A stretch of 64,000 nucleotides of DNA from Pseudomonas sp. (GCA_036675275.1 JAKFFG010000027.1:4113-68112), one strand, 5' to 3'; positions 25,286 through 45,921 are shown, numbered from the stretch's first letter. Notes: generated from the letters alone by a model not told the origin. Made by a program: numbers and translations.

Positions 25286-26140
25286 CTAGCCAAGCTCAAA
25301 AGTGGTTACGCCGAATATTCGTTCGATGGCGATATCCGGCAAATGGCGGTTGTACATGCGCGCCGTGCCAAAAACCTCTTGCATGCCAAAGTCGGCGGCA
25401 AGACGCATGGCTGCTACGTTGGGCTCAGGCACATCAAGGTAAACCAACCTGCCATCCTTGACTTCATTACCCAATGCCAGCAACAAAGATGCAGCAATAG
25501 TGTCATTATCAGCAAACAACGGCCCGACCTTCCAGCCATCGCGGCAAGGGCGAATAACACCATAACCGCGCAGCGCGTGGCCGTCCCACCAAGCCAGGGC
25601 CGCCGAGCCGGGCTGTTTGAGCCAGGCGTCAAGAAACGCCTGACGCCCCGCTGGAAAGGCAAGGCGGTCGTACTGTGCAATACGGCTCGCGGCAACGCGT
25701 CCCACGCCAACAATATAAGGCGCGGAAGCCGCCAGGCCTGGTTCGCACCTGGTCCAGGCGTAGCGTATATTGCTATAAGCTAGGCTAAAACCCGACTTGC
25801 GGTAGTTCAGCTGCTGCTCCTGCACGCCGTCCAGGCCGACATTGCGCGCGCCAAACCGTTGTATGGCGCTATTCCATAACTGCAGGCCGTAGCCATGACC
25901 TCGATATGGCTCAGCCACGATGTAAAAGCCGAGGAAACCGAAGTCGCGGCCATAGCGCACCGCAGAGATGCAACCTATGGGCGCATCATCCAGCAGGCCG
26001 ATCAAGAAACCACCCTGGTCGGCCGCAAAGAAAGCCGCTGCATCGTTCAAGCCCGGATTCCAGCCTTCAGCGGCCGCGAGCTCCACGGCAAATGCCATCT
26101 CTTCCTGGCGCATTGCCCGGATGCGATATTTTCCTGCCAT
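25286..26140 (-). CDS. GNAT-family N-acetyltransferase with C-terminal YitH-like domain
   Basis: 284 aa with the acetyl-CoA binding segment YIVAEPYRGHGYGLQLW. It is divergent from pgaA. Confidence 0.8.
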   Translation of the reverse strand: MAGKYRIRAMRQEEMAFAVELAAAEGWNPGLNDAAAFFAADQGGFLIGLLDDAPIGCISAVRYGRDFGFLGFYIVAEPYRGHGYGLQLWNSAIQRFGARNVGLDGVQEQQLNYRKSGFSLAYSNIRYAWTRCEPGLAASAPYIVGVGRVAASRIAQYDRLAFPAGRQAFLDAWLKQPGSAALAWWDGHALRGYGVIRPCRDGWKVGPLFADNDTIAASLLLALGNEVKDGRLVYLDVPEPNVAAMRLAADFGMQEVFGTARMYNRHLPDIAIERIFGVTTFELG

Positions 26141-26464
26141 AGCTACCCCCGTGTTATGCGTCAGCCAGCCGGGACGTCACCAATATAGCTGGCCTCTGCA
26201 ACAAACAGACTAGTCCGTTTGTCGCACGCATGACGTAAGCCGAATATCGCATTCTAAGCCTAGACGTTCCTCTCTATCATTCGTCTAAGCGTGTCTGTAT
26301 CCAGACATGAAAAATCCTGACAAGCCCGGACTCCCCACCACATTAGCGTGCAGGTGGCGAGACGCGCGTTGCCTCCATTATCAGAGAAAATCCCAGGGGA
26401 AGGAACACCATGTGCCCATCCGCAAGACGAATGATGTTGTCCGTTCACGGCTGAATGGACGATC

Positions 26465-28918
26465 ATGAAGATAGCCTTTACTTGCCTTTTTTCACTGATT
26501 CTGTCCACGACAGCCAGCGTCGCCGAAGCGAGAGTATCGCGTGCCGACTACGACGCATTAATACACGGCGCGCGCGACGGTGATTTCGAACCGGCGCTGG
26601 TCATGCTGCGAGCACACAGCATTGAACACCCCAGAGACTTGCGCGCGGCCTATGATCGCATCCTCATCGCTGGTTGGGCTGCCAATACAGCAGAGGTGAT
26701 CGCTGCCTACGAAGGGCTCGATCCATCTCCCAACCGCCCCCCCTCCAATGTTCTGAAGACAGTTGCCCAGGCCTATCGCGACAGCCAGCGCTGGGACGAT
26801 GCCCTGGCGCTATACCGCCAGGGCAGGCTGCTGTATCCGCGGCAAACATCGTTCGTCGTCGGGGAGATCATGGTGTTGACGGATGCCGGCGACACAGACG
26901 CCGCGGTAGCTCTGGGCCAGGAACAGGTTGAGCGACGTCCGGGCGATGCCGACCTTCGGCTGGCGCTCGGCTATGCGTATAGGGGAACGAATTCTCCATA
27001 CGCGGCCTTGCAGGAAGCGGACCGCGCCCTCGCCATTGCACCGGGCAAGAACTATGTCAGCCGCGAGTACATCAAGAGCCTGGAGCGGGCCGGCCTGCCC
27101 TTGGCGGCCTTGAATTCGGCTCGCCAGCATCCCGGACTGCTCAGCGACAAAGAGATGCGCAATCTGCAGGCGGATTATGTGGCGGAACTCGCCCGCTTGG
27201 CCGAAATGCCAACCAGGCAAGAAACGGAAAGATTCGCTATCGCCGATCGCGCTTTGGCCGAATACGACCGCCTGATCCCGGCATGGGAAGTCCTGGGGCC
27301 GGAAGCAAGCGAAGAACTATTACGCATCCGGATGGACAGGTTGCAGGTATTGCAGACACGCATGCGCATGCAGGATGTTGTAGACGACTATGAGGCCCTG
27401 AAAGCACAAGGCGTGGAGATGCCGCGATACGTAATGAACGATGTTGCGAACGCCTATCTCTATCTGCGCGAACCCGAAGTCGCGGCCCATTTATACAGAC
27501 AGGTACTGAATGACAGCGCCAGCAAGCTCGACAGCCCGGGCGAGCATCTCAGCGATCAAATCAGACTGTTCTATGCCCTGGTTGAAAGCGAGCAATTCGA
27601 CGAGGCAGCGCAAGTCATCGATGCCGCAAGAAAATCCCAACCCAAGTGGCGCCGCATAAAAGGCGTGCCGCAGCCGGTTCCAAACGACCTGCATGTGTAT
27701 GCCGAGGAAACCGCGGCATTAGGCCTGTTTTACGCGGATGACACGCCTGCGGCGCAACAGCGCTTTGAAGAACTCGTGGCCCTGGCTCCAAATAACGTGG
27801 GACTTCGTGCAGGGCTGGCCCGCGTGTATCGCGGCCGCAGCCTTCCGCGGGCTGCCGAGAATCAGCTCAAGATGGCCGAGCCATTGGAACCGCGGGGAGC
27901 TGAGACCCAGTCGGGACAAGGCTTGACGGCGATCGATTTACAGGAATGGCGGCAGGCCAATTCACTGGCCCTAGACCTGGCGGCCCGCTTTCCGGAGGCA
28001 AAACCAACCGATACCCTGGCACGCCGCTGGACTCTACACAAGAAAGCTGAACTCAGGGTTTCGGGCAACCGCGGCATTGCATCCGACAGTCCGGTCATCG
28101 GTAGCGGCGACTTCAATGTAGAAACCGTGCTCTATTCGGCTCCGCTGGATTTCAATTGGCGAGTATTTGGCGGCGGCGGTTATGCCACCGGCGACTTCGA
28201 AGAAGGAACGGGCTATTACCGCTGGCTGCGTACCGGTGTCGAATGGCGGGCTCGCGACGTCACTGCCGAACTCGAAGTATCCAGCCATAACTATGGCTAC
28301 GGCACCAAGCCCGGGGCCCGAGCAAGCGGCGCATACGATTTCAATGATCATTGGCAGGTCGGCGGATTCGCCGCCCTGCGATCGCGTGAAACCCCCTTAC
28401 GCGCACTGCGCAGCGATATCTCTTCGAACAGCTTGGGCGCTTACGTACGCTGGCGCGCCAACGAACGTCGCGAATGGACGTTTACCCTGTCGCCCTCCCG
28501 CTTCAGTGACGGAAATAACCGGCTGATTGGAGTCCTCTCCGGGACTGAGCGGCTATACACCACCCCCACGCTGAAGACCGATCTGCAAATGAATATCGCA
28601 GCGTCGCACAATTCCATTGAAGACGTGCCTTATTTCAATCCCCGTTCTGACCTGGAAGTGCTTCCCGCGCTCAATCTGACTCATATCCTATATCGCCGTT
28701 ACGAGACGATATGGGAGCAGAGCTTTCTGCTGGGCGCGGGCCTGTATGCGCAAAAAGGCTATAGCCCGGGGGCAATCGGCGCGCTGGGTTATGGCATGCG
28801 CTACCAGGCCAGCGACGCCTTCGATGTGGGAGCGACAGTGACCGGCGTGAGCCGACCCTATGACGGCGTACGCGAACGTGAGCTGCGCATCATGTTTGAA
28901 ATGAATCTGCGTTTTTAG
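26465..28918 (+). CDS. pgaA: Poly-beta-1,6-N-acetyl-D-glucosamine (PNAG) export porin PgaA (TPR N-domain + C-terminal beta-barrel)
   Basis: 817 aa with a signal peptide, TPR-like repeats, and a barrel ending in the aromatic residue ...FEMNLRF. It is the first gene of a pgaABCD-ordered operon. Confidence 0.85.
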   Translation: MKIAFTCLFSLILSTTASVAEARVSRADYDALIHGARDGDFEPALVMLRAHSIEHPRDLRAAYDRILIAGWAANTAEVIAAYEGLDPSPNRPPSNVLKTVAQAYRDSQRWDDALALYRQGRLLYPRQTSFVVGEIMVLTDAGDTDAAVALGQEQVERRPGDADLRLALGYAYRGTNSPYAALQEADRALAIAPGKNYVSREYIKSLERAGLPLAALNSARQHPGLLSDKEMRNLQADYVAELARLAEMPTRQETERFAIADRALAEYDRLIPAWEVLGPEASEELLRIRMDRLQVLQTRMRMQDVVDDYEALKAQGVEMPRYVMNDVANAYLYLREPEVAAHLYRQVLNDSASKLDSPGEHLSDQIRLFYALVESEQFDEAAQVIDAARKSQPKWRRIKGVPQPVPNDLHVYAEETAALGLFYADDTPAAQQRFEELVALAPNNVGLRAGLARVYRGRSLPRAAENQLKMAEPLEPRGAETQSGQGLTAIDLQEWRQANSLALDLAARFPEAKPTDTLARRWTLHKKAELRVSGNRGIASDSPVIGSGDFNVETVLYSAPLDFNWRVFGGGGYATGDFEEGTGYYRWLRTGVEWRARDVTAELEVSSHNYGYGTKPGARASGAYDFNDHWQVGGFAALRSRETPLRALRSDISSNSLGAYVRWRANERREWTFTLSPSRFSDGNNRLIGVLSGTERLYTTPTLKTDLQMNIAASHNSIEDVPYFNPRSDLEVLPALNLTHILYRRYETIWEQSFLLGAGLYAQKGYSPGAIGALGYGMRYQASDAFDVGATVTGVSRPYDGVRERELRIMFEMNLRF

Positions 28919-28927
28919 AGAGCCAAC

Positions 28928-30961
28928 ATGTTTGTCAACCTTTCCAGCATACGTTCAATGGCCAGTCTCTTTTGTTCTCTTTTACTGCTGAGCGCATGCG
29001 CCAAGAACATCCCGGTGTTCGTTCCGCCGGAACAGCGTCCCAGCCATAACTTCAATGAACCCTGGCCCAAGAACAAGTATCTGGCGCTTGGCTACCATGA
29101 CGTGGAAGACAATGACCCCGACCAGGCTTTCGTAAGCGTAAAAACCGAGAGGCTGGAAGAGCAGTTTTCATGGCTACGCGAGAACGGCTATCAGCCGATC
29201 ACGGTAGACCAGATTCTGACTGCCAACCAAGGCGGCGAGCCGCTGCCCACAAAGGCTGTACTCCTTACTTTCGACGACGGATACCGCAGCTTCTATACCC
29301 GCGTGTTTCCGCTGCTGAAAGCTTATAACTGGCCCGCCGTTCTGGCGCCGGTGGGCAAATGGGTGGACACACCCGACGGCCAGGAGGTGGATTTCGGTGG
29401 GCGAATGACAGAACGCGAGCGCTTTCTTACCTGGGACCAGATCAGTGAAGTGGCGCGCTCCGGACTGGTCGAAATCGGCGCGCATACCGACGATTTGCAC
29501 TATGGGATACCGGGGAATCCACAGGGAAACCTGCTCCCCGCCGCCGCGGTTCGCGCGTATGACGCCACTACGGGACAGTACGAAACGGATGCCGAGTTCA
29601 AGACACGCATCAGCACGGACGTGAAGCGGATCACGGACAAGATTGTGCGCGCGACCGGCAAGAAACCCCGTGTGTGGGTCTGGCCCTACGGCGCTGCGAA
29701 TGGCGAAACCCTGAAGATTGTGCAGGACCACGGCTACTCCCTGATCCTGACACTGGACTCGGGGCTGGGCTCGGTGGACGACCTGACCGACACGCCGCGG
29801 GTGTTGGTGTCCAACGACCCGCAACTGCGAAATTTTGCAAACGTCAGCATGGTCATGGAAAACAACGAAGTCATGCGGGTCGCTCATGTCGACCTGGACT
29901 ATGTGTACGACTCCGATCCAGAACAAATGGATCGCAATCTGGGCGATCTGGTGCAGCGCATTGCCGACATGAAGATCACGACTGTTTTCCTGCAGGCATA
30001 CGCCGATCCAACCGGCGACGGCCTGGTGAAGTCGCTCTATTTCCCTAATCGCCATTTACCGGTGCGCGCCGATCTGTTCAATCGTGCCGCCTGGCAACTG
30101 AAAACTCGCGCATTCGTCAATGTCTATGCATGGATGCCGGTACTGAGCTATGACCTGCCGTCTTCGATTTCCCGCGTGACCAGCTGGGATCCGGAAACGG
30201 GCGAGACAGCAGTCGATAAGGATTACTATCGGCGCCTTTCGCCATTCGACCCGGCGGCCCGTCAGAAGATCATCGAAATCTACGAAGACCTGGCCAAACA
30301 CTCGCTATTCAGCGGTGTTCTTTTCCACGACGATGCTGTGCTGTCCGACTTCGAGGATGCCGGTCCGCATGCATTGGCCGCTTACCAAGCTGCCGGACTA
30401 CCCGGCAATATCGAGGCGTTGCGCGCCGATCCGGATACTTTCCAGCGCTGGACGCGCTACAAAAGCCAGTATCTGGTCGACTTCACCAAGGAGCTGACCG
30501 AACACGTGCGCGCCATACGAGGCCCGCAGATCAAGACGGCACGCAATATCTTCGCCGAACCGATACTTCATCCCGAAAGCGAGGCCTGGTTTGCGCAGAA
30601 CCTGGATGACTTCCTGGCTGCCTATGACTGGACCGCGCCCATGGCCATGCCATGGATGGAGAACGTCCCCGCCGAGGAGGCAGACGCATGGCTGGATAAG
30701 CTGGTCACCACCGTGGGTACACGCCCCGGCGCCCTCAACAAAACGGTATTTGAAATACAGGGACGTGACTGGCGACCGTCCGAAGGACAGGAAGACTCTG
30801 GCCATGTCGATTCCGCGTTGATGGCCCGATGGTTGAAACGTTTGCAATTGAGTGGCGCTCGCAGCTTCGGCTATTACCCCGATGACTTCACGAAAAATCA
30901 GCCCCGGTTGGATGTCATCCGGCCGGCAATCTCAAACGCGTGGTATCCCTTCCATGATTGA
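28928..30961 (+). CDS. pgaB: PNAG N-deacetylase lipoprotein PgaB
   Basis: 677 aa with lipobox LLLSACA. The polysaccharide deacetylase (CE4) N-domain contains LTFDDGY, followed by a GH13-like C-domain. Confidence 0.9.
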   Translation: MFVNLSSIRSMASLFCSLLLLSACAKNIPVFVPPEQRPSHNFNEPWPKNKYLALGYHDVEDNDPDQAFVSVKTERLEEQFSWLRENGYQPITVDQILTANQGGEPLPTKAVLLTFDDGYRSFYTRVFPLLKAYNWPAVLAPVGKWVDTPDGQEVDFGGRMTERERFLTWDQISEVARSGLVEIGAHTDDLHYGIPGNPQGNLLPAAAVRAYDATTGQYETDAEFKTRISTDVKRITDKIVRATGKKPRVWVWPYGAANGETLKIVQDHGYSLILTLDSGLGSVDDLTDTPRVLVSNDPQLRNFANVSMVMENNEVMRVAHVDLDYVYDSDPEQMDRNLGDLVQRIADMKITTVFLQAYADPTGDGLVKSLYFPNRHLPVRADLFNRAAWQLKTRAFVNVYAWMPVLSYDLPSSISRVTSWDPETGETAVDKDYYRRLSPFDPAARQKIIEIYEDLAKHSLFSGVLFHDDAVLSDFEDAGPHALAAYQAAGLPGNIEALRADPDTFQRWTRYKSQYLVDFTKELTEHVRAIRGPQIKTARNIFAEPILHPESEAWFAQNLDDFLAAYDWTAPMAMPWMENVPAEEADAWLDKLVTTVGTRPGALNKTVFEIQGRDWRPSEGQEDSGHVDSALMARWLKRLQLSGARSFGYYPDDFTKNQPRLDVIRPAISNAWYPFHD

Positions 30962-32282
30962 TCGACTCATCGCTCTCCTGGTGTTGTGCATCGCGCTTGG
31001 CGCGCCGTTCGGACTGACTCTTGTACTGACAAGCAGCGTCCTGCTCAACTTTGTCTTTTTCTATCCCCTGTTCATGTCGGGAATCTGGATTGCCGGCGGG
31101 CTTTACTTCTGGTTTCATTGGGAGCGCCACTGGAAGTGGCGACCGTACCGCTCGCCCGATCTTGCAGGCCAACCGCTTATAACCGTCATTGTTCCTTGCT
31201 ATAACGAGGAACATCATGGCGAGGAAACCATACGGGCGGCGCTAAATCAGGACTATGCGAACATCGAGGTCATCGCGGTGAACGACGGCTCATCCGACGG
31301 AACCGCTGCGCTGTTCGACAGGCTGGCGTCCGAAAACCCCAGGCTCCGGGTCATACACCTGGCACAGAACCAGGGCAAGGCCATGGCATTGCGCATGGGA
31401 GCAATGGCGGCGCGCAGTGAATACCTGGTCTGCATCGACGGCGACGCCCACCTTGATCCAGACGCCCTGCGGTATTTGGTCGCGCCCATGATCCAGAACT
31501 CGAATGTGGCGGCCGTAACGGGCAACCCCCGCATACGCACACGATCCACGCTGATTGGGCGCATACAGGTTGGCGAGTTTTCTTCCATTATCGGTCTTAT
31601 CAAACGTACTCAACGTGTTTATGGCCAATTGTTCTCGGTTTCGGGGGTAGTTGCGGCGTTCCGGCGCCAGGCGCTGGACCAGGTGGACTACTGGAGCCTG
31701 GACATGATCACCGAAGACATCGATATCACATGGAAACTTCAACGCGAGAACTGGACTGTCCTTTATGAACCGCGGGCACTGTGCTGGATTCTCATGCCCG
31801 AAACCCTGCAGGGTTTGTGGAAGCAACGAGTACGCTGGGCGCAGGGAGGCGCAGAAGTATTTCTGAAAAACCTGCTAAGTATCTGGAACTGGAAATACCG
31901 CAGGCTATGGCCTTTGATGGCCGAATATTGCCTGTCTATCGCCTGGGCATTCGCAATGGGCCTTTCGATTGTTCTGTGGATATTGGGCCACATTGTGGCT
32001 TTGCCCGTCAACGTACAAGTATCGACCCTTCTGCCACCTGCCTTTACCGGCATGGTGCTCGCCCTGGTCTGCCTTCTGCAATTCGTGGTGAGCATCCTGA
32101 TAGACCGACGTTACGAACCCCGCCTCCCACGTTCGCTGTATTGGATCATCTGGTATCCGTTCGCTTACTGGATCATCAACTTTTTCACCACCCTCTTCAG
32201 TTTCCCTAAAGTCATGCTGCGCATTCGGCGCCAGCGCGCCCGCTGGTCCAGCCCCGATCGCGGCATAAAGGAGTTGTCATGA
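30954..32282 (+). CDS. pgaC: PNAG synthase PgaC (family 2 glycosyltransferase)
   Basis: The ATG at 30954 overlaps the pgaB stop (ATGATTGA). GT2 motifs are VIVPCYNEE, NDGSSDGT, CIDGDA and the Q-x-x-RW motif QRVRWAQGG. Confidence 0.9.
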   Translation: MIDRLIALLVLCIALGAPFGLTLVLTSSVLLNFVFFYPLFMSGIWIAGGLYFWFHWERHWKWRPYRSPDLAGQPLITVIVPCYNEEHHGEETIRAALNQDYANIEVIAVNDGSSDGTAALFDRLASENPRLRVIHLAQNQGKAMALRMGAMAARSEYLVCIDGDAHLDPDALRYLVAPMIQNSNVAAVTGNPRIRTRSTLIGRIQVGEFSSIIGLIKRTQRVYGQLFSVSGVVAAFRRQALDQVDYWSLDMITEDIDITWKLQRENWTVLYEPRALCWILMPETLQGLWKQRVRWAQGGAEVFLKNLLSIWNWKYRRLWPLMAEYCLSIAWAFAMGLSIVLWILGHIVALPVNVQVSTLLPPAFTGMVLALVCLLQFVVSILIDRRYEPRLPRSLYWIIWYPFAYWIINFFTTLFSFPKVMLRIRRQRARWSSPDRGIKELS

Positions 32283-32755
32283 TTATCACTACGCAACGCT
32301 CAAGCATTTTCCTGGCTATTGACGCAACGCTGACAGCCATGGGATGGATCGGCTTCTTCTATCTGTTTACCCGAGGCGTAACGAGTATGGTGGATGTCGC
32401 GGCCCACGGTAGCCCGCGGATTTCAGCGCTGGACCTTTATCTACCTACCGTAACGACTTTGGCCGCCTATCTGTTGGTGGGAGCCGTGAACGCCCTTGTG
32501 CTTGTGCTTTGGGCTCGTTATCACAATCTCTTCTTCAGCGAGCTGTATCGGCCCAAGGCCTTGCCCCGTATCGACGAGGGCATGGTCGCGGAGCACTTCC
32601 AGCTTACCTTCAACCAATTGAGAGAGATTCAGAGCAGCCGGGTAACCGTGATCTATCACGCCACTGATGGCGCAATAGCACACCTGGAAACCGATCAGCT
32701 GCAAGTGCAGTCCGCCCACAGCGCTACCACCCTGGAACGGGTGAAAGTCGCCTGA
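32279..32755 (+). CDS. pgaD: PNAG biosynthesis protein PgaD
   Basis: 158 aa with two N-terminal TM helices. It has an ATGA overlap with pgaC and sits in the fourth operon position. Confidence 0.75.
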   Translation: MIITTQRSSIFLAIDATLTAMGWIGFFYLFTRGVTSMVDVAAHGSPRISALDLYLPTVTTLAAYLLVGAVNALVLVLWARYHNLFFSELYRPKALPRIDEGMVAEHFQLTFNQLREIQSSRVTVIYHATDGAIAHLETDQLQVQSAHSATTLERVKVA

Positions 32756-33045
32756 CGCAGATATAGCGTGGATCGAGGCCAACGGCCTAGGCCGTTTGGC
32801 TACGGCCACTGAAGTCAGGCTATGACAAAAAGCTGAACACGGCGTAGGCCATCTACCGCATGTTTCGATCAGCTTAGGACCCTAAGATAGATCCATGCAA
32901 TTCGTTTCTTTACGTTAAGAAGATACGACATAAGGTTACAGACAAGTAGTCCAAGGGGAAGAGGTTCGGGCCGGCAAAAGGCACCTAACCCAGCCATTCA
33001 GCTTCACCGCAACAAAAACGCAAATCGCGGCAGGGAGAGGATTAG

Positions 33046-33564
33046 ATGCGCTTGTTCACCGTACTTGCCCCACTGGCCATCGTCTTGAACGGCGCCTGCT
33101 TTGCGGCAGCGATCCCGGTCACAAAGGACGCCGAGCAGGCTCGACCCGTGGTGGCAAGAGACGCTTTACCCGGCCCAAAGGCAAACAGCCCCGACGTCCC
33201 GAACGGCTCTCATCAGCCACGTAGCACGGTGTTCGACGACCCGCTTAGCGGCATCGTTGTAAACCGCACTGTCACGGTACTGGGCAATGACTTCTATCAA
33301 TACTTCAGCTCCCGTTGGCGTCAAAAGGACATCAGCACCAAGTACACGATATCCATTCATGAGCGCCCGTCAGCGCGATTCGGTAGCGAGATATGGGTGC
33401 AGTTCCGGCAAAAGCGGATGTTTCACGCCTTTTTACCGCCGGCACGGGCCGCGACCAAGAAGATAAGTTGGTCAGCCGTCGAAATGGTCTACCAGAACAT
33501 CAATGACAGTGAGATTGAACGGATCATGGTGAAAAGCCCTGATCTAGGACCCGAGGAGATGTAA
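33046..33564 (+). CDS. csgE: Curli production assembly/transport component CsgE
   Basis: GNDFYQYFSSRWRQKD...ISIHERPSARFGSEIWV parallels E. coli CsgE GHDFYRAFSDKW...LTINERPSARWGSWITI. A signal peptide is present. Confidence 0.85.
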   Translation: MRLFTVLAPLAIVLNGACFAAAIPVTKDAEQARPVVARDALPGPKANSPDVPNGSHQPRSTVFDDPLSGIVVNRTVTVLGNDFYQYFSSRWRQKDISTKYTISIHERPSARFGSEIWVQFRQKRMFHAFLPPARAATKKISWSAVEMVYQNINDSEIERIMVKSPDLGPEEM

Positions 33565-34029
33565 ATGAAAGGAGATAACGTGGCAATAAGAACAGAACAC
33601 CGCATACGCACCGGGCTGTTGATCGTGTCACTGGCGTTGGCAGGCCAGGCCGCGGCAACAGAGCTGGTGTATTACCCCCTTAACCCGTCATTCGGAGGCA
33701 GCGCCCTCAACGGAACCGTCCTGTTGAATTCGGCACTCGCCACGAACAAACACACCGACCCTACCGCAGACGCTTATGGCATCGAAGAAAAGACGCCTGC
33801 ACAGCTGCTCAACGAGACCATCGAACGCACGGTGATCAATCGCATGGCCACTGCGGCCAGCGGCCAGATCATGGATAACAACGGCAACTTTGTACCGGGC
33901 ACGCTCGAAACGAGCAATTTCACCATTACGGTAACCGTGTCGCCGACCAATCCCAACAACCTGACAATCACGACGCTGGACAAGCTTACAGGCGCTACTA
34001 CAGTCTTTAATGTGAGCAACCAAGGATGA
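33565..34029 (+). CDS. csgF: Curli production assembly/transport component CsgF
   Basis: YYPLNPSFGGSALNGTVLLNSA parallels E. coli CsgF [22 protein letters not shown]. A signal peptide is present. Confidence 0.85.
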   Translation: MKGDNVAIRTEHRIRTGLLIVSLALAGQAAATELVYYPLNPSFGGSALNGTVLLNSALATNKHTDPTADAYGIEEKTPAQLLNETIERTVINRMATAASGQIMDNNGNFVPGTLETSNFTITVTVSPTNPNNLTITTLDKLTGATTVFNVSNQG

Positions 34030-34967
34030 ATACTATAAAAAGAAATAGCGCCGCTTATCAGCGGCTGGCCCTGGCTGGGATGACTACGATTTTATGTGGC
34101 GCACTTGGTGCATGCGCCGTGCCAAGTACGCCGGTTCAGGTGACAACTGCGGCACAGTTGACGCCTCCCACACCGACTTCACATGATTTGCGTAATCTGC
34201 CGCCGCCCAAGGGCAAGGTCGTTGTGGCTGTCTATGGGTTTCGCGATCAGACCGGGCAATACAAGCCATCTCCGGACAGTTCGTTTTCGACCTCAGTGAC
34301 TCAAGGGGCCGCGTCAATGCTGGTCAAGGCCCTGAAAGAATCCGGCTGGTTCACCCCTGTCGAACGCGAAAGCCTTCAGGAACTTCTCACGGAACGCCGT
34401 ATTGTCCGGGCTCTGGATGGATCGCAGGCCAAGGACGCACCCGAAATCCACATTCCCGCGCTGGTTCCGGCGTCCATCCTGATAGACGGCGGAATCATTT
34501 CCTACGAAAGCAATGTCAGGTCGGGCGGGCTGGGCGCCAAGTTCCTGGGTGTAGGTTTATCCACTCAATACCGGATGGACCAGGTAACCATAGGGTTGCG
34601 CAGTGTGGACATACGCACAGGGCAGGTTTTGCAGACCGTCTCCACGACCAAAACGATCTTTTCGTATGAAGTACGTCCCAGCGTCTACAAGTTCGTGAAT
34701 TTCAAGGATCTTCTGGAAATTGAAGGCGGCGTTACCAACAACGAGCCGGCCCAATTGTGTGTCAAGGAAGCCATTGAGGCAGCTGTCGTTCACCTTACTG
34801 TTCAGGGGCTGAAAGACAGGAACTGGGTGCTTAAGAACGAGAGCGACTGGAACTTGCCGGTTATCCAGGACTATCTGCGTGAAGCCACAAATTACGCGTC
34901 GGTCCCGATTGATCTGCCCGGGGAAGTAGACAAGACAACCGTATCCCTGGCTGAAAAAGACGAGTGA
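34026..34967 (+). CDS. csgG: Curli secretion channel lipoprotein CsgG
   Basis: 313 aa with lipobox LGAC. VVAVYGFRDQTGQYKP...VTQGAASMLVKALKESGWF is the typical CsgG sequence. Confidence 0.9.
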   Translation: MNTIKRNSAAYQRLALAGMTTILCGALGACAVPSTPVQVTTAAQLTPPTPTSHDLRNLPPPKGKVVVAVYGFRDQTGQYKPSPDSSFSTSVTQGAASMLVKALKESGWFTPVERESLQELLTERRIVRALDGSQAKDAPEIHIPALVPASILIDGGIISYESNVRSGGLGAKFLGVGLSTQYRMDQVTIGLRSVDIRTGQVLQTVSTTKTIFSYEVRPSVYKFVNFKDLLEIEGGVTNNEPAQLCVKEAIEAAVVHLTVQGLKDRNWVLKNESDWNLPVIQDYLREATNYASVPIDLPGEVDKTTVSLAEKDE

Positions 34968-35059
34968 AAACAAAGCACCCGTAGCGTCGTACTGCAGTCC
35001 GGTATCAAAGACCGCCGGACTGGCTTGCAATATTTGGTCTTTATTCTGAGGAGAAATAT

Positions 35060-35764
35060 ATGAGCATCAAATTGTCTGCACTTGCCCTTGGCATTACCCT
35101 GGCTTACGGCGCCACTGCAGCCATGGCAGCCGATGAAGCCAGCATCTATCAACAAGGCTGGTTCAATGACGCATCCGTTGAACAATTCAGCAACAACAAC
35201 GCCGTCGCAACGATTTCCCAAGGTGGCTTCGGCAATGAAGGCGTTGTCAAGCAAGAGCAAATCGATAATTCCCTGGCAACTATCACCCAGAATGGCAGTG
35301 CCGGATCCGCAACCATCAACCAGGGCGGTCAACTGGGAGAAGGACAGTGGGTACGCGTCGGTGGGCATTGGGGCTATGGCGGCGGCTGGCAGTATGTACC
35401 GGGACAGTGGACCAACGGCGTGAACCAGACGGCACATATCACACAGGCCGATGGTTACGGTAACGACGCTTGGATCACCCAGACCGGTACCAATGTCGAT
35501 GCCCACATTTATCAGGACGGAGTGCTGAACACGGCCGGAATCTTGCAACACGGCACGGGCGGCGCCCACAACGAGGCAAACATTTCTCAACGTGGGAAAT
35601 ATAACGACGGCTACATCACCCAGAACGGCAGCAATCTGGTAGCCACGATAAACCAGCATGGCATTGGGAACGAGGCCACCCTGATGCAAACTGGTTCGGA
35701 CAAGACCGCAACGATTACGCAAACGAGAGGCTACCAGAACGTGGCCTATATCAATCAGCGTTAA
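35060..35764 (+). CDS. Curlin-repeat amyloid subunit (CsgA/CsgB family), ~8 imperfect repeats
   Basis: Signal peptide ...ATAAMA, then repeats of the S/T-x5-Q-x-G-x-G-N-x-A-x3-Q type. Examples are NAVATISQGGFGNEGVVKQ, NSLATITQNGSAGSATINQ, NQTAHITQADGYGNDAWITQ and NLVATINQHGIGNEATLMQ. Confidence 0.85.
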   Translation: MSIKLSALALGITLAYGATAAMAADEASIYQQGWFNDASVEQFSNNNAVATISQGGFGNEGVVKQEQIDNSLATITQNGSAGSATINQGGQLGEGQWVRVGGHWGYGGGWQYVPGQWTNGVNQTAHITQADGYGNDAWITQTGTNVDAHIYQDGVLNTAGILQHGTGGAHNEANISQRGKYNDGYITQNGSNLVATINQHGIGNEATLMQTGSDKTATITQTRGYQNVAYINQR

Positions 35765-35901
35765 CACCAGCTCCAACCCGCAGTAAAGAGGTCAACCACA
35801 GGCGGGCGTTTCGCCTGCTTGTGGACACAAGACTTATAAGTCGTCCCGCCTTACGGGATTTGTTGTGAATTTGACATAGATCAAAACATGGGAGAAGTGA
35901 A

Positions 35902-36210
35902 ATGGTAGGGGATAGCGACATACAGGTTTGGCTGGAAACAGTTGCCAGATCGCAGCCCGCCGTTGTAGTGCCATACGTGCGCAGCAACGCGGATACCACG
36001 TTGCGCTACAAAATGCGGACTGTGAAGCAAAGCGACAGCGGAAAATCAGTGATAGGGCAAGGGGGTGTAGTGACGGTGCTGGCGGATGTGCCCGCAGCGT
36101 TGTCTCGTATGTCATTGAGCCGTTCGCCGAATGATGAATGCGAAATTGACGTGGTGCTTTCCGAAGCCGGAGTGGCTGACCGAAGCTACCATTTCAAGTG
36201 TCCCGATTGA
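35902..36210 (+). CDS. CsgC/CsgH-like curli amyloid-inhibitor chaperone homolog (apparently leaderless)
   Basis: LRYKMRTVKQSDSGKSVIGQGGVVTVLADVPAALSRMSLSRSPNDECEIDVVLSEAG aligns by eye with E. coli CsgC CRVQILSLREGSSGQSQTKQEKTLSLPANQPIALTKLSLNISPDDRVKIVVTVSDG. GGGAGAAG sits upstream of the ATG. An in-frame TGA at 35872-35874 blocks any N-terminal extension. Confidence 0.55.
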   Translation: MVGDSDIQVWLETVARSQPAVVVPYVRSNADTTLRYKMRTVKQSDSGKSVIGQGGVVTVLADVPAALSRMSLSRSPNDECEIDVVLSEAGVADRSYHFKCPD

Positions 36211-36409
36211 TTAAAGGCATCCAAGGATTTTGTCTATTTAAAGTAATGATTTACATCGCTTTTCGACGCAGCGGTTGCTTGCCTCATAAGCGCTGTACCA
36301 ATACCATAGAAAGCAACAATCCAGTTGGATATTCGTTTCGCTATCCGCGAAACTGGAAATCTCGATCGACGCTCACAACACGGCGACGAGGAACCTAGGA
36401 AGAAGAAGA

Positions 36410-37228
36410 ATGCCGACTATTATTGTCATCGAGCCCCACCCCCTGCTCCGGCTCGGTATCTTGCAGCTTATATCAGATGTCGTTCCCGGTGTGAAGCTGG
36501 AGGGCGCCGACCATGCCTCCCCCCCGAGCGAAGGCAGCTCATCCGATCGATGCGACCTCCTCTTGCTGTCGATATCTTCGCAGGAAGATATACACGACTT
36601 GGTGACAGCCGCGGACCACTCATACTCGCCAAAAGCAGTGTTGCTGCTGGCCGAAAGCAGCGATATGCCGACATCGGCAAAAGGTCTGCCAGCTTCCGTA
36701 GCCGGCTATGTGCCCAAGAACGTGCCGCCCGAGGTATTGCAAGCGTCGATACGCCTGGTTCTGGCAGGCGGCACATGCTTTCCTTTGCGGCCCAATGTAA
36801 GCAAGCCGCCACAGGTATTGACGCCGCTATACGAGTCAGTCAAGTGGCCTCCGGCTCCCGAGACAAAAAGCAAGCTGCAGCCGGACGCCAATTCCGAATG
36901 TCAGATGCTGGGCCTTACTCCCCGCCAATACGAAGTGCTGGTATTGCTTGCCCGGGGATATCCCATGAAGACGGTGGGCCGCTATTTGAATATTTCTGTC
37001 GCCACAGCAAAGGCCCATACCGAAACGCTGTACCAGCGCCTCGATGTGCATAACCGTAACGCTGCAGTCTATGCCGCAGTGTCGCGGGGTGCTACGCTGG
37101 GCTGGGCGTCGATCAGCGGGAACCAGGAGTCTGGCTCGGCACCCATAAAGCCTGAACTCGAAGCCCAGAACACCGTGGACTTCCGCCACGGTGTACAAGC
37201 CCGACAGCGTGCCGGAATTCGTCCTTGA
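36410..37228 (+). CDS. LuxR/FixJ-family regulator with atypical (pseudo-)receiver domain, CsgD-like
   Basis: C-terminal LuxR HTH LTPRQYEVLVLLARGYPMKTVGRYLNISVATAKAHTETLYQRL. The N-terminal receiver-like fold has EP instead of the acidic pair. It also has Ser at the phospho-acceptor position (DLLLLSISS). Confidence 0.75.
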   Translation: MPTIIVIEPHPLLRLGILQLISDVVPGVKLEGADHASPPSEGSSSDRCDLLLLSISSQEDIHDLVTAADHSYSPKAVLLLAESSDMPTSAKGLPASVAGYVPKNVPPEVLQASIRLVLAGGTCFPLRPNVSKPPQVLTPLYESVKWPPAPETKSKLQPDANSECQMLGLTPRQYEVLVLLARGYPMKTVGRYLNISVATAKAHTETLYQRLDVHNRNAAVYAAVSRGATLGWASISGNQESGSAPIKPELEAQNTVDFRHGVQARQRAGIRP

Positions 37229-37236
37229 AATGATAC

Positions 37237-37261
37237 CGGCCTGCACGTGCTGGCAGGCCGG
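37237..37261. terminator. GC-rich hairpin between the convergent csgD-like and osmC genes (possible bidirectional terminator)
   Basis: CGGCCTGC-acgtgctg-GCAGGCCG flanked by an A7 run on the plus strand (T7 on the minus strand). Confidence 0.45.
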
Positions 37262-37285
37262 GACAAAAAAACCGAAACAGATGGA

Positions 37286-37711
37286 TCAGGCCTCGAGCGT
37301 GGCGTCCATCGTGATCTTGGCATTAAGCACCTTGGAGACCGGGCAACCCGCTTTCGCCTGGTTTGCGATTTCGTCGAACTTGCCTTCATCGGCGCCCGGT
37401 ATGCGCGCGACAACCGTAAGATGGCTTGCCGTGATGGCAAAGCCGTCGCCAACCTTTTCCAGGGTCACCGCTGCACTTGTCTTTATGCTTTCCGCCGTCA
37501 GACCCGCTTCACCCAGCATCAGAGACAGCGCCATTGAAAAGCAGCCGGCATGCGCCGCAGCGATAAGCTCTTCTGGATTTGTTCCGGGGCCGTCTTCGAA
37601 CCGCGCCTTGAAGCCGTAGGGCGCATTACTCAACACCCCGGTTTCGGTCGAAATCGTGCCGCCACCTTCCTTGATACTTCCCTTCCAGACTGCCGATGCA
37701 TTTTTGATCAT
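37286..37711 (-). CDS. osmC: OsmC-family peroxiredoxin
   Basis: 141 aa with two conserved Cys contexts (AAAHAGCFSMAL and KAGCPVSK). Confidence 0.9.
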   Translation of the reverse strand: MIKNASAVWKGSIKEGGGTISTETGVLSNAPYGFKARFEDGPGTNPEELIAAAHAGCFSMALSLMLGEAGLTAESIKTSAAVTLEKVGDGFAITASHLTVVARIPGADEGKFDEIANQAKAGCPVSKVLNAKITMDATLEA

Positions 37712-37740
37712 GACTGCTCCTTATGTGGACGGATGTAGCG

Positions 37741-38295
37741 TTACAACAAACCCATTTGCAAGCGCGCCGGCTCGCTGATCATTTCGCGGCTCCATGGTGG
37801 ATCCCAGACCAGGTCGACAGTGACCTCGTCAACGCCGTGTATGGACAACAATTTGCTGCGGGCCTCGTCGGCAATCATTGTGCCCATACCGCAACCGGGC
37901 GCCGTAAGCGTCATCTGCGCCTCGATGCGAAACTTGTCTTCACCCAAGGGCAAAACCTTGCAGCCGTACACCAACCCAAGGTTGACGATGTCTATCGGAA
38001 TTTCCGGATCGTAGCAAGTGGCAAGCAGGCTCCAGGCCGCGTCTTCGACCGACTGGGCCGTGACCGGACCCTCGGGCACGTGCGACTGCGCCTCGATGGG
38101 CTCGAAGCCCAGCGCATCGCCGTCTATGCCTTCAATCCGGTACAAATTGCCTTCGACGACCACCGTATAACTGCCGCCCAGCTGCTGTGTGATGGTGGCC
38201 GAACAACCTTCTTCAATGGTGACGGGCGAGCCGTAAGGCACCGTCACAGCCGGGCAGTCCCGATTTACGATTACTTCTTGGCGTGCATAACTCAT
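37741..38295 (-). CDS. sufT: Putative Fe-S cluster assembly protein SufT (DUF59/MIP18 family)
   Basis: The ATG at 38295 gives a 184 aa protein with the DUF59 core CYDPEIPIDIVNLGLVY and TLTAPGCGMG. It is the last gene of the suf operon. The longer ORF-track start overlaps sufU. Confidence 0.8.
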   Translation of the reverse strand: MSYARQEVIVNRDCPAVTVPYGSPVTIEEGCSATITQQLGGSYTVVVEGNLYRIEGIDGDALGFEPIEAQSHVPEGPVTAQSVEDAAWSLLATCYDPEIPIDIVNLGLVYGCKVLPLGEDKFRIEAQMTLTAPGCGMGTMIADEARSKLLSIHGVDEVTVDLVWDPPWSREMISEPARLQMGLL

Positions 38296-44107: not shown

Positions 44108-45921
44108 ACTGCGGAATCTTGCTCTGCCTGGCTTGGCCGGTCCGGATCCTGGCCACTTTGCTGCAAGTTCCACATCTGGGCATACCGACCGGCCTGGGCA
44201 ATCAAATCCCGGTGGGAACCGCGCTCAAGAACCCTTCCGTGATCCAGAACAATGATTTCGTCCGCCTCCACGATCGTGGAAAGGCGATGAGCGATGATCA
44301 GCGTGGTGCGGTCCTTGGCCACCTGGCGCAGCTCGTCCTGAATCACCCTTTCGGTGCGTGTGTCGAGCGCGCTGGTCGCCTCGTCCAGTATCAGGATGGG
44401 CGGATTCTTCAGGACCGTGCGCGCGATGGCAACGCGCTGCTTTTCACCACCCGACAATTTCAGGCCCCGTTCACCGACTTGAGTCTGATAGGCGTCCGGC
44501 AGGTTCATGACAAAGTCGTGAATGCTCGCGGCCTTGGCTGCCTGGACAATTTCCTGCTCTGACGCGTCCGGATTTCCATACGCGATGTTGTACAGGATGC
44601 TGTCGTTGAACAGGACGGTATCTTGCGGAACGATTCCGATATGCCGCCGCAGGCTGGCCTGGGTCAGGTCTCGAATGTCGACGCCATTAATCGTGATCGA
44701 GCCGGAATTGACATCGTAGAAACGGAACAGCAATCTGGACAGGGTCGATTTCCCGGCACCGGAAGATCCCACTACGGCCAATGTCTTGCCCGCGGGTATC
44801 GAGAAGCTCACATCAAACAGAATCTGGCGGTTTGATTCATAGCCGAATTCCACATTATTGAAGCGGATTGCCGCCTGCGATGTACACAATTCCGTGGCAG
44901 CCGGACGGTCGGCCACTTCCTGGCCCTGCTCCATCAGGCCGAACATGCGCTCCATATCAGCCAGCGCATGCTTTATCTCGCGATATACAAAGCCCAGGAA
45001 ATTGAGCGGCGCATACAACTGCGTGAGATAGGCCGAAACCAGTACGACATCGCCTACCGACATAGTCTTGCTCACCACTCCCTGCGCCGATAGCCAAAGC
45101 AGCAAGGTAACGCCGGTCGTAATGATGACGCCCTGCCCCATGTTCAGGAAGTTGAGCGACACCTGGTTCTTGACGGCCGAATCCACCCATTTCCCCAGAT
45201 TGCTGTCGTAGCGATCCAGCTCGTAACCCTCGTTGCCGAAGTATTTCACCGTCTCGTAATTGATCAGGGCATCGATGGCTTTGCTGTTGGCCTTGCTGTC
45301 CAGGTCGTTCATGCTGCGGCGATAGACCATCCGCTTCTCGGTCACCACCAGGGTAAACGCAATATACGCGGCGATCGTGCCTAGGGTCACGACAGCAAAG
45401 CGCCAATCGTAGCGCCACAGCAAAATGGCAGTCACCATGCCGATTTCCAGCAGGGTCGGCAAGATATTGAACACCATGAAATTGAGCAGAAAACCTATGC
45501 CCTTGGTGCCGCGTTCGATATCCCTGCTCAAGCCTCCCGTCTGCCGCTGCATATGAAAGCGCAGCGACAAGGCAAACAGATGTTTGAACAATTGGGCCGC
45601 AATACGGCGTATGGACCCTTGCGTGACACGCGCAAACAGCGCATCGCGCAGCTCTCCGAAGACGCTGGACGCCAGGCGCGCAAAGCCATACCCCAGCAAC
45701 GCGGCCACCGGAAGCACGAGCAAAGTGCCCGGCAAGCTGAGTTTGTCGACGATGTCTTTCAAGAACAGAGGCAGGATTACGCTGGCGACCTTGGCAGCCA
45801 CCAGACAGGCCAAGGCCGCAGCCACGCGCCGCTTGAACTGCCATACATAAGGCAGCAGCGACCTTATCGTCTTTATATCGTCCCGCCCCCCGGGCGCAGA
45901 TCCACGGTGACTCATTTTCAT
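44104..45921 (-). CDS. ATM1/HMT1-type ABC exporter (fused TMD-NBD half transporter)
   Basis: About 605 aa with Walker A GSSGAGKST, LSGGEKQRVAIAR, ILILDEATSALD and IIAHRLS. It is a paralog of residues ~36-600 of the fusion at 8072-10822. Its start ATG at 45921 forms an ATGA overlap with the upstream acyltransferase stop. Confidence 0.9.
   Translation of the reverse strand: MKMSHRGSAPGGRDDIKTIRSLLPYVWQFKRRVAAALACLVAAKVASVILPLFLKDIVDKLSLPGTLLVLPVAALLGYGFARLASSVFGELRDALFARVTQGSIRRIAAQLFKHLFALSLRFHMQRQTGGLSRDIERGTKGIGFLLNFMVFNILPTLLEIGMVTAILLWRYDWRFAVVTLGTIAAYIAFTLVVTEKRMVYRRSMNDLDSKANSKAIDALINYETVKYFGNEGYELDRYDSNLGKWVDSAVKNQVSLNFLNMGQGVIITTGVTLLLWLSAQGVVSKTMSVGDVVLVSAYLTQLYAPLNFLGFVYREIKHALADMERMFGLMEQGQEVADRPAATELCTSQAAIRFNNVEFGYESNRQILFDVSFSIPAGKTLAVVGSSGAGKSTLSRLLFRFYDVNSGSITINGVDIRDLTQASLRRHIGIVPQDTVLFNDSILYNIAYGNPDASEQEIVQAAKAASIHDFVMNLPDAYQTQVGERGLKLSGGEKQRVAIARTVLKNPPILILDEATSALDTRTERVIQDELRQVAKDRTTLIIAHRLSTIVEADEIIVLDHGRVLERGSHRDLIAQAGRYAQMWNLQQSGQDPDRPSQAEQDSAV

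Follow-up and report, generated by a model that had tools for sequence, protein, structure and literature searches.

A single-strand curli locus with one curlin gene in a relative of Pollutimonas

In the Escherichia coli model of curli formation, the nucleator CsgB, held in place by CsgF, serves as the template on which the major subunit CsgA polymerises. Each of these two proteins also polymerises alone in vitro, and they cross-seed each other (restated in PMC12822426). In E. coli and Salmonella, the genes are arranged in two divergent operons, csgBAC and csgDEFG, and encode both CsgB and CsgA, whereas the locus described here lies entirely on one strand and encodes one curlin. It occupies positions 33046-37228 of a 64,000-nucleotide stretch of DNA (hereafter, the window, the numbering of which is used throughout) from an assembly labelled Pseudomonas sp. 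(GCA_036675275.1, JAKFFG010000027.1:4113-68112), and its nearest named relatives are Pollutimonas species. We consider that the locus probably encodes a curli (type VIII secretion) system that is functional and of a type conserved in Pollutimonas, Candidimonas, and Pusillimonas, a soil clade of betaproteobacterial Alcaligenaceae; in such a system, one curlin would serve for both nucleation and polymerisation.

The organisation of csg genes is very varied and includes single operons, and extra CsgA/B copies are often located in additional loci (Dueholm et al. 2012, PLoS One 7:e51274, PMC3521004). An update across the GTDB in 2025, comprising 4,723 clusters, also showed that their composition is highly variable. 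The initial annotation of the window contrasted the locus with the divergent operons of E. coli and Salmonella. This contrast is real, but the novelty that it implied was overstated because only those two genera were compared, and collinear csg loci are usual outside the Enterobacteria. In Pusillimonas sp. T7-7, which belongs to the same family and is known here from Table S1 of Dueholm et al. (2012), CsgE, CsgF, CsgG, one CsgA/B protein, and CsgC are consecutive; no CsgA, CsgB, or CsgD was assigned, and the trailing LuxR-type regulator is not listed. The paper makes no remark on the single curlin of T7-7, and its text describes the Betaproteobacteria as lacking csgC and csgD, whereas its Table S1 lists CsgC in T7-7 and CsgH in Burkholderia sp. 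383. The same set of csgE, csgF, csgG, a single curlin gene, and csgC was therefore already catalogued in 2012, and the present locus is a known variant, not a new kind of system.

Two curlin-like genes were found in 40,559 of 43,279 curli-bearing genomes (Sleutel et al. 2023), and no discussion or test of a system with a single curlin was found in the literature. The Fap system of Pseudomonas, which is built from unrelated proteins, also encodes its accessory proteins in one operon with a nucleator and subunit pair (FapB and FapC), and retains both paralogues almost universally; its relevance here is by analogy alone, as an example of the two-paralogue rule, which this locus breaks. A one-curlin system that is conserved, expressed, and under selection would offer a natural test of whether the division of labour between CsgA and CsgB is needed, and could serve as a simpler chassis in the engineering of curli materials. 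Its practical value is limited, given that the architecture is already catalogued and that the key claim would be the absence of a nucleator from the whole genome.

Composition and conservation of the locus

The six open reading frames (ORFs) of the initial annotation, all on the plus strand, were upheld in position and family by Pfam and NCBIfam (Table 1). The csgE and csgF genes adjoin (33564/33565), and csgF and csgG overlap (34026-34029). The parts expected of a curli or type VIII secretion system were found together, namely a CsgG channel, CsgE and CsgF alongside it, and a subunit with a Sec leader and curlin repeats, for which a pattern of the X6-Q-X-G-X2-N-X10 type was taken as the criterion. 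Two paralogous curlins, which are typical of such systems but not strictly defining, were not found; there was one curlin in the 64 kb and one in each of 24 related loci. Hydrophobic leaders were present on CsgE, CsgF, CsgG, and the curlin. The proteins were compared by BLASTP with those of E. coli K-12, drawn from its annotated genome. CsgE (172 amino acids, with a signal peptide) matched the full PF10627 model and was 32% identical to E. coli CsgE, with an N-terminus approximately 40 amino acids longer, and is predicted to be the periplasmic secretion adaptor and cap. CsgF (154 amino acids; 30% identity) matched a nearly complete PF10614 model and kept the NPxFGG...NG..LLNSA motif at its mature N-terminus, as in mature E. 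coli CsgF, which identifies it as the putative surface-exposed assembly factor. The 313-amino-acid CsgG carries the lipobox LGAC and was 44% identical to E. coli CsgG over 274 amino acids, as expected of the outer-membrane lipoprotein channel.

The curlin is a protein of 234 amino acids with a predicted signal peptide (leader hydropathy, 2.24) cleaved after AMA at residue 23. Its 16 AxIxQ strands make up eight curlin repeats, with repeats 1-3 separated from repeats 4-8 by a Gly/Trp-rich insert of approximately 30 amino acids (amino acids 89-120; 35324-35419). The insert, which is rich in Gly, Trp, and His, differs in length between orthologues and was modelled with low confidence by AlphaFold2. 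The curlin was approximately 36% identical to E. coli CsgA and CsgB alike in BLASTP, and differs from the E. coli proteins in its eight repeats, its internal Gly/Trp insert, and the absence of the N-terminal N22 segment. The AlphaFold2 model was a beta-solenoid with a predicted local distance difference test (pLDDT) score of 79, which exceeded 90 in repeats 4-8. A Foldseek search of the PDB with this model returned only generic beta-helix proteins, none of them significant, so the fold was assigned from the sequence matches obtained with phmmer, which were to the curlin fibre 8c50 (1e-23) and the E. coli CsgA fibre 8enq (3e-4). One clear orthologue of the curlin (P0007) is labelled 'copper(I)-binding protein' by the Joint Genome Institute (JGI), which is probably a misannotation.

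A scan of species-representative genomes identified one such locus in each of 24 Alcaligenaceae genomes, which included Pollutimonas, Candidimonas, Pusillimonas, Yanghanlia, and metagenome-assembled genomes. The order csgE-csgF-csgG-curlin-csgC/H-luxR on one strand was retained in all 24, and all six ORFs were intact throughout, with curlin identity ranging from 86% down to 36%. When the window was compared with four relatives, the ratios of nonsynonymous to synonymous substitution rates (dN/dS) ranged from 0.03 to 0.21 over all six genes (csgE, 0.05-0.11; csgF, 0.05-0.10; csgG, 0.03-0.06; curlin, 0.11-0.21; regulator, 0.05-0.13), indicating that every gene of the locus is under purifying selection.

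The locus is also transcribed in soil. Two soil metatranscriptome runs yielded contigs 95-100% identical to it, and in those of run X14 the depth was 53-62 over the curlin gene, approximately 10 over csgG, and 8-16 over the two downstream genes.

The number of curlin genes and the nucleation of fibres

The initial annotation reported one curlin ORF at the locus, and our six-frame searches of the window agreed. The queries were a profile of the curlin's own repeats, a set of 14 diverse curlins (among them CsgA and CsgB of E. coli, together with short and long ones from other lineages), and a profile of short CsgB-like curlins. All three gave a sole match at 34985-35761. Over the whole window, the runner-up in the own-repeat search had an E-value of 0.79, the diverse curlins gave no other match at E<=1, and the CsgB-like profile gave none at E<=10. 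The gaps of 290, 92, 137, and 199 bp contained no curlin-like ORF, as had been noted, and are too short for another gene; this disposes, within the locus, of the missed small curlin ORF that had been named beforehand as one of the findings that would refute a one-curlin interpretation. The csgG-curlin gap measures 77-154 bp across the clade, likewise too short for a gene. In the 24 related genomes, one curlin-like ORF each was found within about 10 kb on either side of the locus. When 5.8 billion proteins were searched with a profile, P. nitritireducens and P. bauzanensis were each represented by a single match, and the same search retrieved both paralogues (P0016 and P0046) of a contig with two curlins (L036), which served as a positive control. 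Pusillimonas sp. T7-7 had a single unclassified CsgA/B protein in a RefSeq-wide screen with curated hidden Markov models (HMMs) (Dueholm et al. 2012, Table S1, PMC3521004). Most likely, judging from these sequences, there is no curlin other than that of this locus, and it must initiate the fibre as well as elongate it.

Three candidates for stand-alone CsgB relatives were rejected. P0017 and P0050 are truncated fragments, and P0014 combines a pgaB leader with the 3' part of a curlin gene. The latter is a 169-amino-acid ORF directly after pgaA (L039:4402-4911), in which a PgaB-like lipoprotein leader is joined to the last five curlin repeats; it represents either a natural deletion from pgaB to the middle of the curlin gene or a chimeric assembly in a 5-kb Logan contig.

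In the mechanism that we propose, CsgG would form the outer-membrane channel, with CsgE gating it from the periplasm and CsgF positioned outside. The single eight-repeat curlin would be exported unfolded and would assemble by stacking into a fibre of the beta-solenoid type. In the absence of a second curlin, the same protein would have to provide both the first template and the later subunits, and we infer that the first template is most likely a curlin copy held at CsgF. The CsgH-type protein would prevent premature polymerisation of the subunit, and expression would be controlled by the LuxR-type regulator, which is encoded last in the locus.

Several points weigh against this interpretation. 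The searches covered 64 kb of the source genome, and a csgB-like gene could lie at a distance elsewhere. Precomputed Pfam annotation missed short CsgB-like curlins in outgroups, so that annotation-based surveys, including older ones, easily overlook them. We found no experimental report of fibres for the clade, and one paper merely lists curli and poly-N-acetylglucosamine (PNAG) genes from a database comparison (PMC12783916). The mature N-terminus of the curlin has no segment of the N22 type, which is recognised by CsgG in E. coli (PMC6957492), suggesting that substrate recognition by CsgG may differ from that in E. coli. The putative chaperone carries no export signal, which places its assumed periplasmic role in doubt. 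Finally, contig depth reflects expression only crudely, and the transcripts came from related soil strains, that is, from other genomes.

A more specific version of the one-curlin system combines self-templating at CsgF with a leaderless inhibitor of the CsgH type, which would either act on the subunit in the cytoplasm, ahead of its export by Sec, or enter the periplasm by some route not yet recognised. We regard this combination as rather unlikely; if true, control of amyloid formation would differ from that in E. coli on two counts, with one subunit and a leaderless inhibitor. The protein concerned has 102 amino acids, with cysteines C80 and C100 invariant in 17 orthologues and no CxC motif. 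A CxC motif characterises CsgC, whereas cysteines distant in the sequence characterise CsgH (Taylor et al. 2016, Sci Rep 6:24656), so the protein is CsgH-like by this definition; its orthologues are called CsgH by NCBI, and beta-proteobacterial CsgH subfamilies were already noted by Taylor et al. (2016). AlphaFold2 predicted a seven-strand beta-sandwich (pLDDT 88), and the top two Foldseek matches were E. coli CsgC (2xsk; template modelling [TM] score 0.76/0.81, E 2e-6) and Rhodopseudomonas palustris CsgH (2n59; TM 0.74/0.75, E 4e-6). The CsgC fold is therefore common to E. coli and this locus (TM about 0.8), although the sequence is only 26% identical to that of E. coli CsgC in BLASTP. The same fold and a gene position beside the subunit gene are features of the CsgC/CsgH family (Taylor et al. 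2016), from whose members this protein differs in having no signal peptide; it also differs from E. coli CsgC in having no CxC motif. On these predictions, it is a putative amyloid-inhibiting chaperone.

No signal peptide was detected on the CsgH-like protein, the N-terminus of which is acidic, with a hydropathy of 1.2 compared with 2.2-3.3 in the exported Csg proteins. A longer N-terminus is excluded by an in-frame TGA at 35872-74, nine codons before the ATG, together with a GGAG Shine-Dalgarno sequence, and the start is identical in all orthologues. An exhaustive profile search for CsgH yielded 197 representative clusters (50% identity). The best of these, approximately 110, were about 100-108 amino acids long and matched from residue 1 or the first few residues, whereas distant relatives of 115-138 amino acids (e.g., P0216, P0254, and P0280) had clear Sec leaders and the same two cysteines. 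A link between leaderless CsgH and single-curlin loci was ruled out by L040, a locus with a short and a long curlin, which resembles the present one in having a leaderless CsgH at its end and a LuxR-type regulator beside it. The leaderless subfamily, which retains the cysteine pair of its exported relatives, is perhaps a more surprising lead for specialists than the other one offered here, the natural one-subunit system.

It is unlikely that a gene for a separate short csgB-like curlin lies in another part of the genome, in which case the gene set would be split but the system would operate as it does in E. coli. The initial annotation had framed its question as a choice between a self-nucleating curlin and a nucleator located elsewhere; that question was the right one, and the evidence, which for the source genome covers the window, favours the former. 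Additional-locus copies of CsgA/B are frequent (Dueholm et al. 2012, PMC3521004), and short CsgB-like curlins are easily missed. In Massilia (L037) and in L036, L038, and L040, which represent other Burkholderiales and further lineages, csgEFG is followed by curlin genes in the same order and on the same strand as here. These four loci contain, directly after csgG, an unannotated short curlin of 132-182 amino acids with no precomputed Pfam match (Table 1), and then one or two long curlins. Because the short curlins carry no Pfam annotation, the curlin counts per locus taken from annotation can be too low. The short curlins of L036, L037, and L038 scored higher with the NCBIfam CsgB model than with the CsgA model, by 21 to 44 bits, and Burkholderia sp. 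383 (Dueholm et al. 2012, Table S1) is grouped with these loci of short and long curlins. However, the short curlin lies directly after csgG in every examined outgroup locus that has one, and the corresponding gap here is only 92 bp. Neither the 64 kb nor the roughly 20 kb around each of the 24 related loci contained a further match, and the named Pollutimonas species with one protein each and T7-7 with one CsgA/B also argue against a distant nucleator, the former in a search that recovers paralogues. The clade is distinguished by a single mid-sized curlin where the neighbouring lineages have a short CsgB-like curlin and a long one.

We consider it improbable that no protein nucleator is needed at all, with CsgF, PNAG, or a high local concentration acting as the template, or with the subunit polymerising away from the cell. 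The complete pgaABCD cluster lies 290 bp upstream of csgE on the same strand, an adjacency shared by 14 of the 24 related loci; the pga-csgE spacer is transcribed, given that a metatranscriptome contig covers 32766-32971. CsgF is intact, and its N-terminal motif is conserved. However, distant members of the clade keep the single-curlin locus without an adjoining pga cluster, and nothing in the sequence directly favours a polysaccharide template. If CsgF is the anchor, this alternative overlaps with our preferred reading, in which a curlin copy is held at CsgF.

A further alternative concerns the origin of the gene, which could have arisen by fusion or consolidation, with three or four N-terminal repeats, a Gly-rich linker as a remnant of N22, and a core of five repeats. 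One chain would in that case contain both a nucleator-like and a subunit-like part. In support, residues 106-229 align with N22 and R1-R5 of E. coli CsgA and with positions 31-149 of the NCBIfam CsgA model, and across the orthologues the number of N-terminal repeats and the length of the insert vary, whereas the C-terminal five repeats are in constant register. The NCBIfam scores also differ along the chain, with CsgB exceeding CsgA by 20.5 bits in the C-terminal five repeats, compared with -1.7 in the N-terminal three. Against this, the N22 alignment consists of low-complexity Gly-rich sequence, the repeat-by-repeat identity matrix showed no two-module signature, and no clean separation of modules was obtained with a per-strand position-specific scoring matrix (PSSM). 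A fusion of B and A in the outgroup order would place the B-like part at the N-terminus, whereas NCBIfam suggests the reverse, and no two-gene intermediate was found in the 24 genomes of the clade. We therefore rejected a fusion of two curlins as unsupported by these comparisons and hold the broader consolidation scenario to have little likelihood.

Whether the curlin is of the A or B type depended on the test. The whole protein scored 87.7 bits with the NCBIfam CsgB model and 74.1 bits with the CsgA model, both far under the cut-offs (165 and 160, respectively). The margin of CsgB over CsgA was 21 to 44 bits in the short outgroup curlins and 2 to 16 bits in the long ones, so that the 20.5 bits of the C-terminal five repeats resemble the former and exceed the latter. 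BLASTP scores of 60.8 bits for CsgB and 57.8 bits for CsgA do not discriminate. In the per-strand PSSM with leave-one-out scoring, the curlin scored -2.0; this value falls among those of the A proteins (-3.9 to -1.1) and is lower than every B score (-1.2 to +1.0), although the two classes overlap. The tests thus disagree, with the NCBIfam margin leaning towards CsgB and the PSSM placing the curlin among the A proteins. The typing of the curlin as CsgB-like was abandoned because the C-terminal lean in NCBIfam was not confirmed by the PSSM. The resemblance of the last repeat to R5 of E. coli CsgB was also set aside as a weak lead only, with the termini out of register in BLASTP and the CsgA and CsgB scores equal. 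CsgA and CsgB are distinguishable only in the Gammaproteobacteria (Dueholm et al. 2012, PMC3521004).

Decay of the locus, with csgA or csgB lost and fibres no longer made, might be suggested by its one gene fewer than in neighbouring lineages, but this idea is close to refuted by the six intact ORFs in 24 genomes, the low dN/dS values, and transcription in soil with the curlin gene highest.

Regulator, RNA structures, and neighbouring genes

The regulator was called csgD-like in the initial annotation, which is too strong. It scored 24 bits against the CsgD equivalog model (cut-off, 250), and BLASTP aligned a 52-amino-acid helix-turn-helix alone with E. coli CsgD. Whereas csgD heads csgDEFG in E. 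coli, the regulator gene here is the last, at the 3' end of the locus. The protein has 272 amino acids, and its helix-turn-helix is nearly invariant across the clade. The receiver-like N-terminal domain is degenerate, with EP in place of the acidic DD and Ser at the position of the phospho-acceptor Asp in 19 of 19 orthologues, as read from an alignment with E. coli CsgD and typical NarL-family receivers. No Response_reg match was found in Pfam, and a UvrY/GacA-type receiver model matched residues 3-120 weakly. The regulator may be a functional analogue of CsgD, not an orthologue.

The 290 bp before csgE contain blocks conserved in the alignment of orthologues and form a candidate promoter and operator region. 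The 9-mer ATTCGTTTC occurs exactly twice in the 64 kb, at 32900-32908 before csgE and at 36331-36339 before the regulator gene. The second copy overlaps a perfect inverted repeat, GTTTCGC-N5-GCGAAAC (36335-36353), and the two together, 57-79 nucleotides before the regulator ATG, make up a candidate autoregulatory operator. It is possible that the ATTCGTTTC sites are the operator of the LuxR-type regulator, this being a pattern recognised post hoc. In a sigma-70 promoter scan of the locus, sites were no commoner than in shuffled sequences, and none were found in the intergenic gaps.

Table 1. Positions of the genes and candidate regulatory elements in the window, and of short curlin ORFs in four outgroup loci
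Feature	Position	Strand	Evidence or description
CsgE	33046-33564	+	PF10627, 2e-28
CsgF	33565-34029	+	PF10614, 4e-22
CsgG	34026-34967	+	PF03783, 1e-67
Curlin	35060-35764	+	PF07012, 3e-26
CsgC/CsgH-fold protein	35902-36210	+	Tafi-CsgC PF10610, 2e-8; NCBIfam CsgH subfamily, 41.5 bits (cut-off 35)
LuxR/NarL-type regulator	36410-37228	+	GerE/LuxR helix-turn-helix, 3.5e-11
Candidate promoter/operator region	32756-33045	+	Before csgE
Conserved structured element	34996-35053	+	csgG-curlin spacer; two interleaved helices
Two hairpins	35796-35859	+	3' of the curlin stop codon
Candidate autoregulatory operator	36331-36353	+	ATTCGTTTC copy 2 and perfect inverted repeat
pgaABCD	26465-32755	+	PNAG exopolysaccharide synthesis and export; context, outside the curli system proper
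pgaA	26465-28918	+	PgaA_barrel, 2e-130
pgaB	28928-30961	+	GHL13 and Polysacc_deac_1
pgaC	about 30954-32282	+	Glycos_transf_2
pgaD	32279-32755	+	PgaD
Short curlin ORF, L037	L037:7550-7948		No precomputed Pfam match
Short curlin ORF, L036	L036:7402-7944		No precomputed Pfam match
Short curlin ORF, L038	L038:6276-6824		No precomputed Pfam match
Short curlin ORF, L040	L040:3961-4497		No precomputed Pfam match

Two interleaved helices in the csgG-curlin spacer, P1 (34996-35002 paired with 35015-35021) and P2 (35007-35013 paired with 35036-35042), represent either a pseudoknot or alternative hairpins. Among 16 orthologues, 94.6% of the P1/P2 cells were paired, compared with 32-55% when the partner columns were slid, and 5 of the 14 pairs showed compensatory changes. 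A single-sequence fold of this spacer was no better than shuffles (z=-0.7), and an Rfam scan of 26000-38000 gave nothing at E<=1. The Shine-Dalgarno sequence GAGGAG (35048-35053) lies 3' of the helices, and the 3' strand UCUUU could pair with it alternatively. In the distant orthologues L023-L031, a different hairpin, GGGCC...GGCCC, occurs at the same place.

Downstream of the curlin gene, the first hairpin has a 13-bp stem (35796-35808/35812-35824), and the second (35843-35859), which was listed by the terminator scan, is terminator-like and is followed by TTGTTGTG. The RNA fold of 35762-35905 had a z-score of -3.2, and none of 200 shuffles folded as well. A strong hairpin follows the curlin stop codon in every orthologue, with a different sequence each time, and the two hairpins here probably act as a partial terminator or stabilise the curlin mRNA at its 3' end. 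The metatranscriptome contigs of both runs stop at 35777/35778, just past the curlin stop codon; these ends lie upstream of both hairpins, neither of which explains them. A curlin message above those of its neighbours, a conserved 5' structure, and 3' hairpins fit what would be expected for the bulk subunit of the operon, if these RNA structures have the roles suggested for them.

The pga and csg genes bring two biofilm-matrix systems together in one block. The start of pgaC was placed by inference from a 442-amino-acid orthologue in L005. Beyond the locus, an AT3-SGNH acyltransferase is encoded at 45918-47900, and an MHYT-GGDEF-EAL protein, of a kind involved in cyclic di-GMP turnover, at 48163-50265, 11 kb downstream; these two proteins could be linked to biofilm control or polysaccharide modification.

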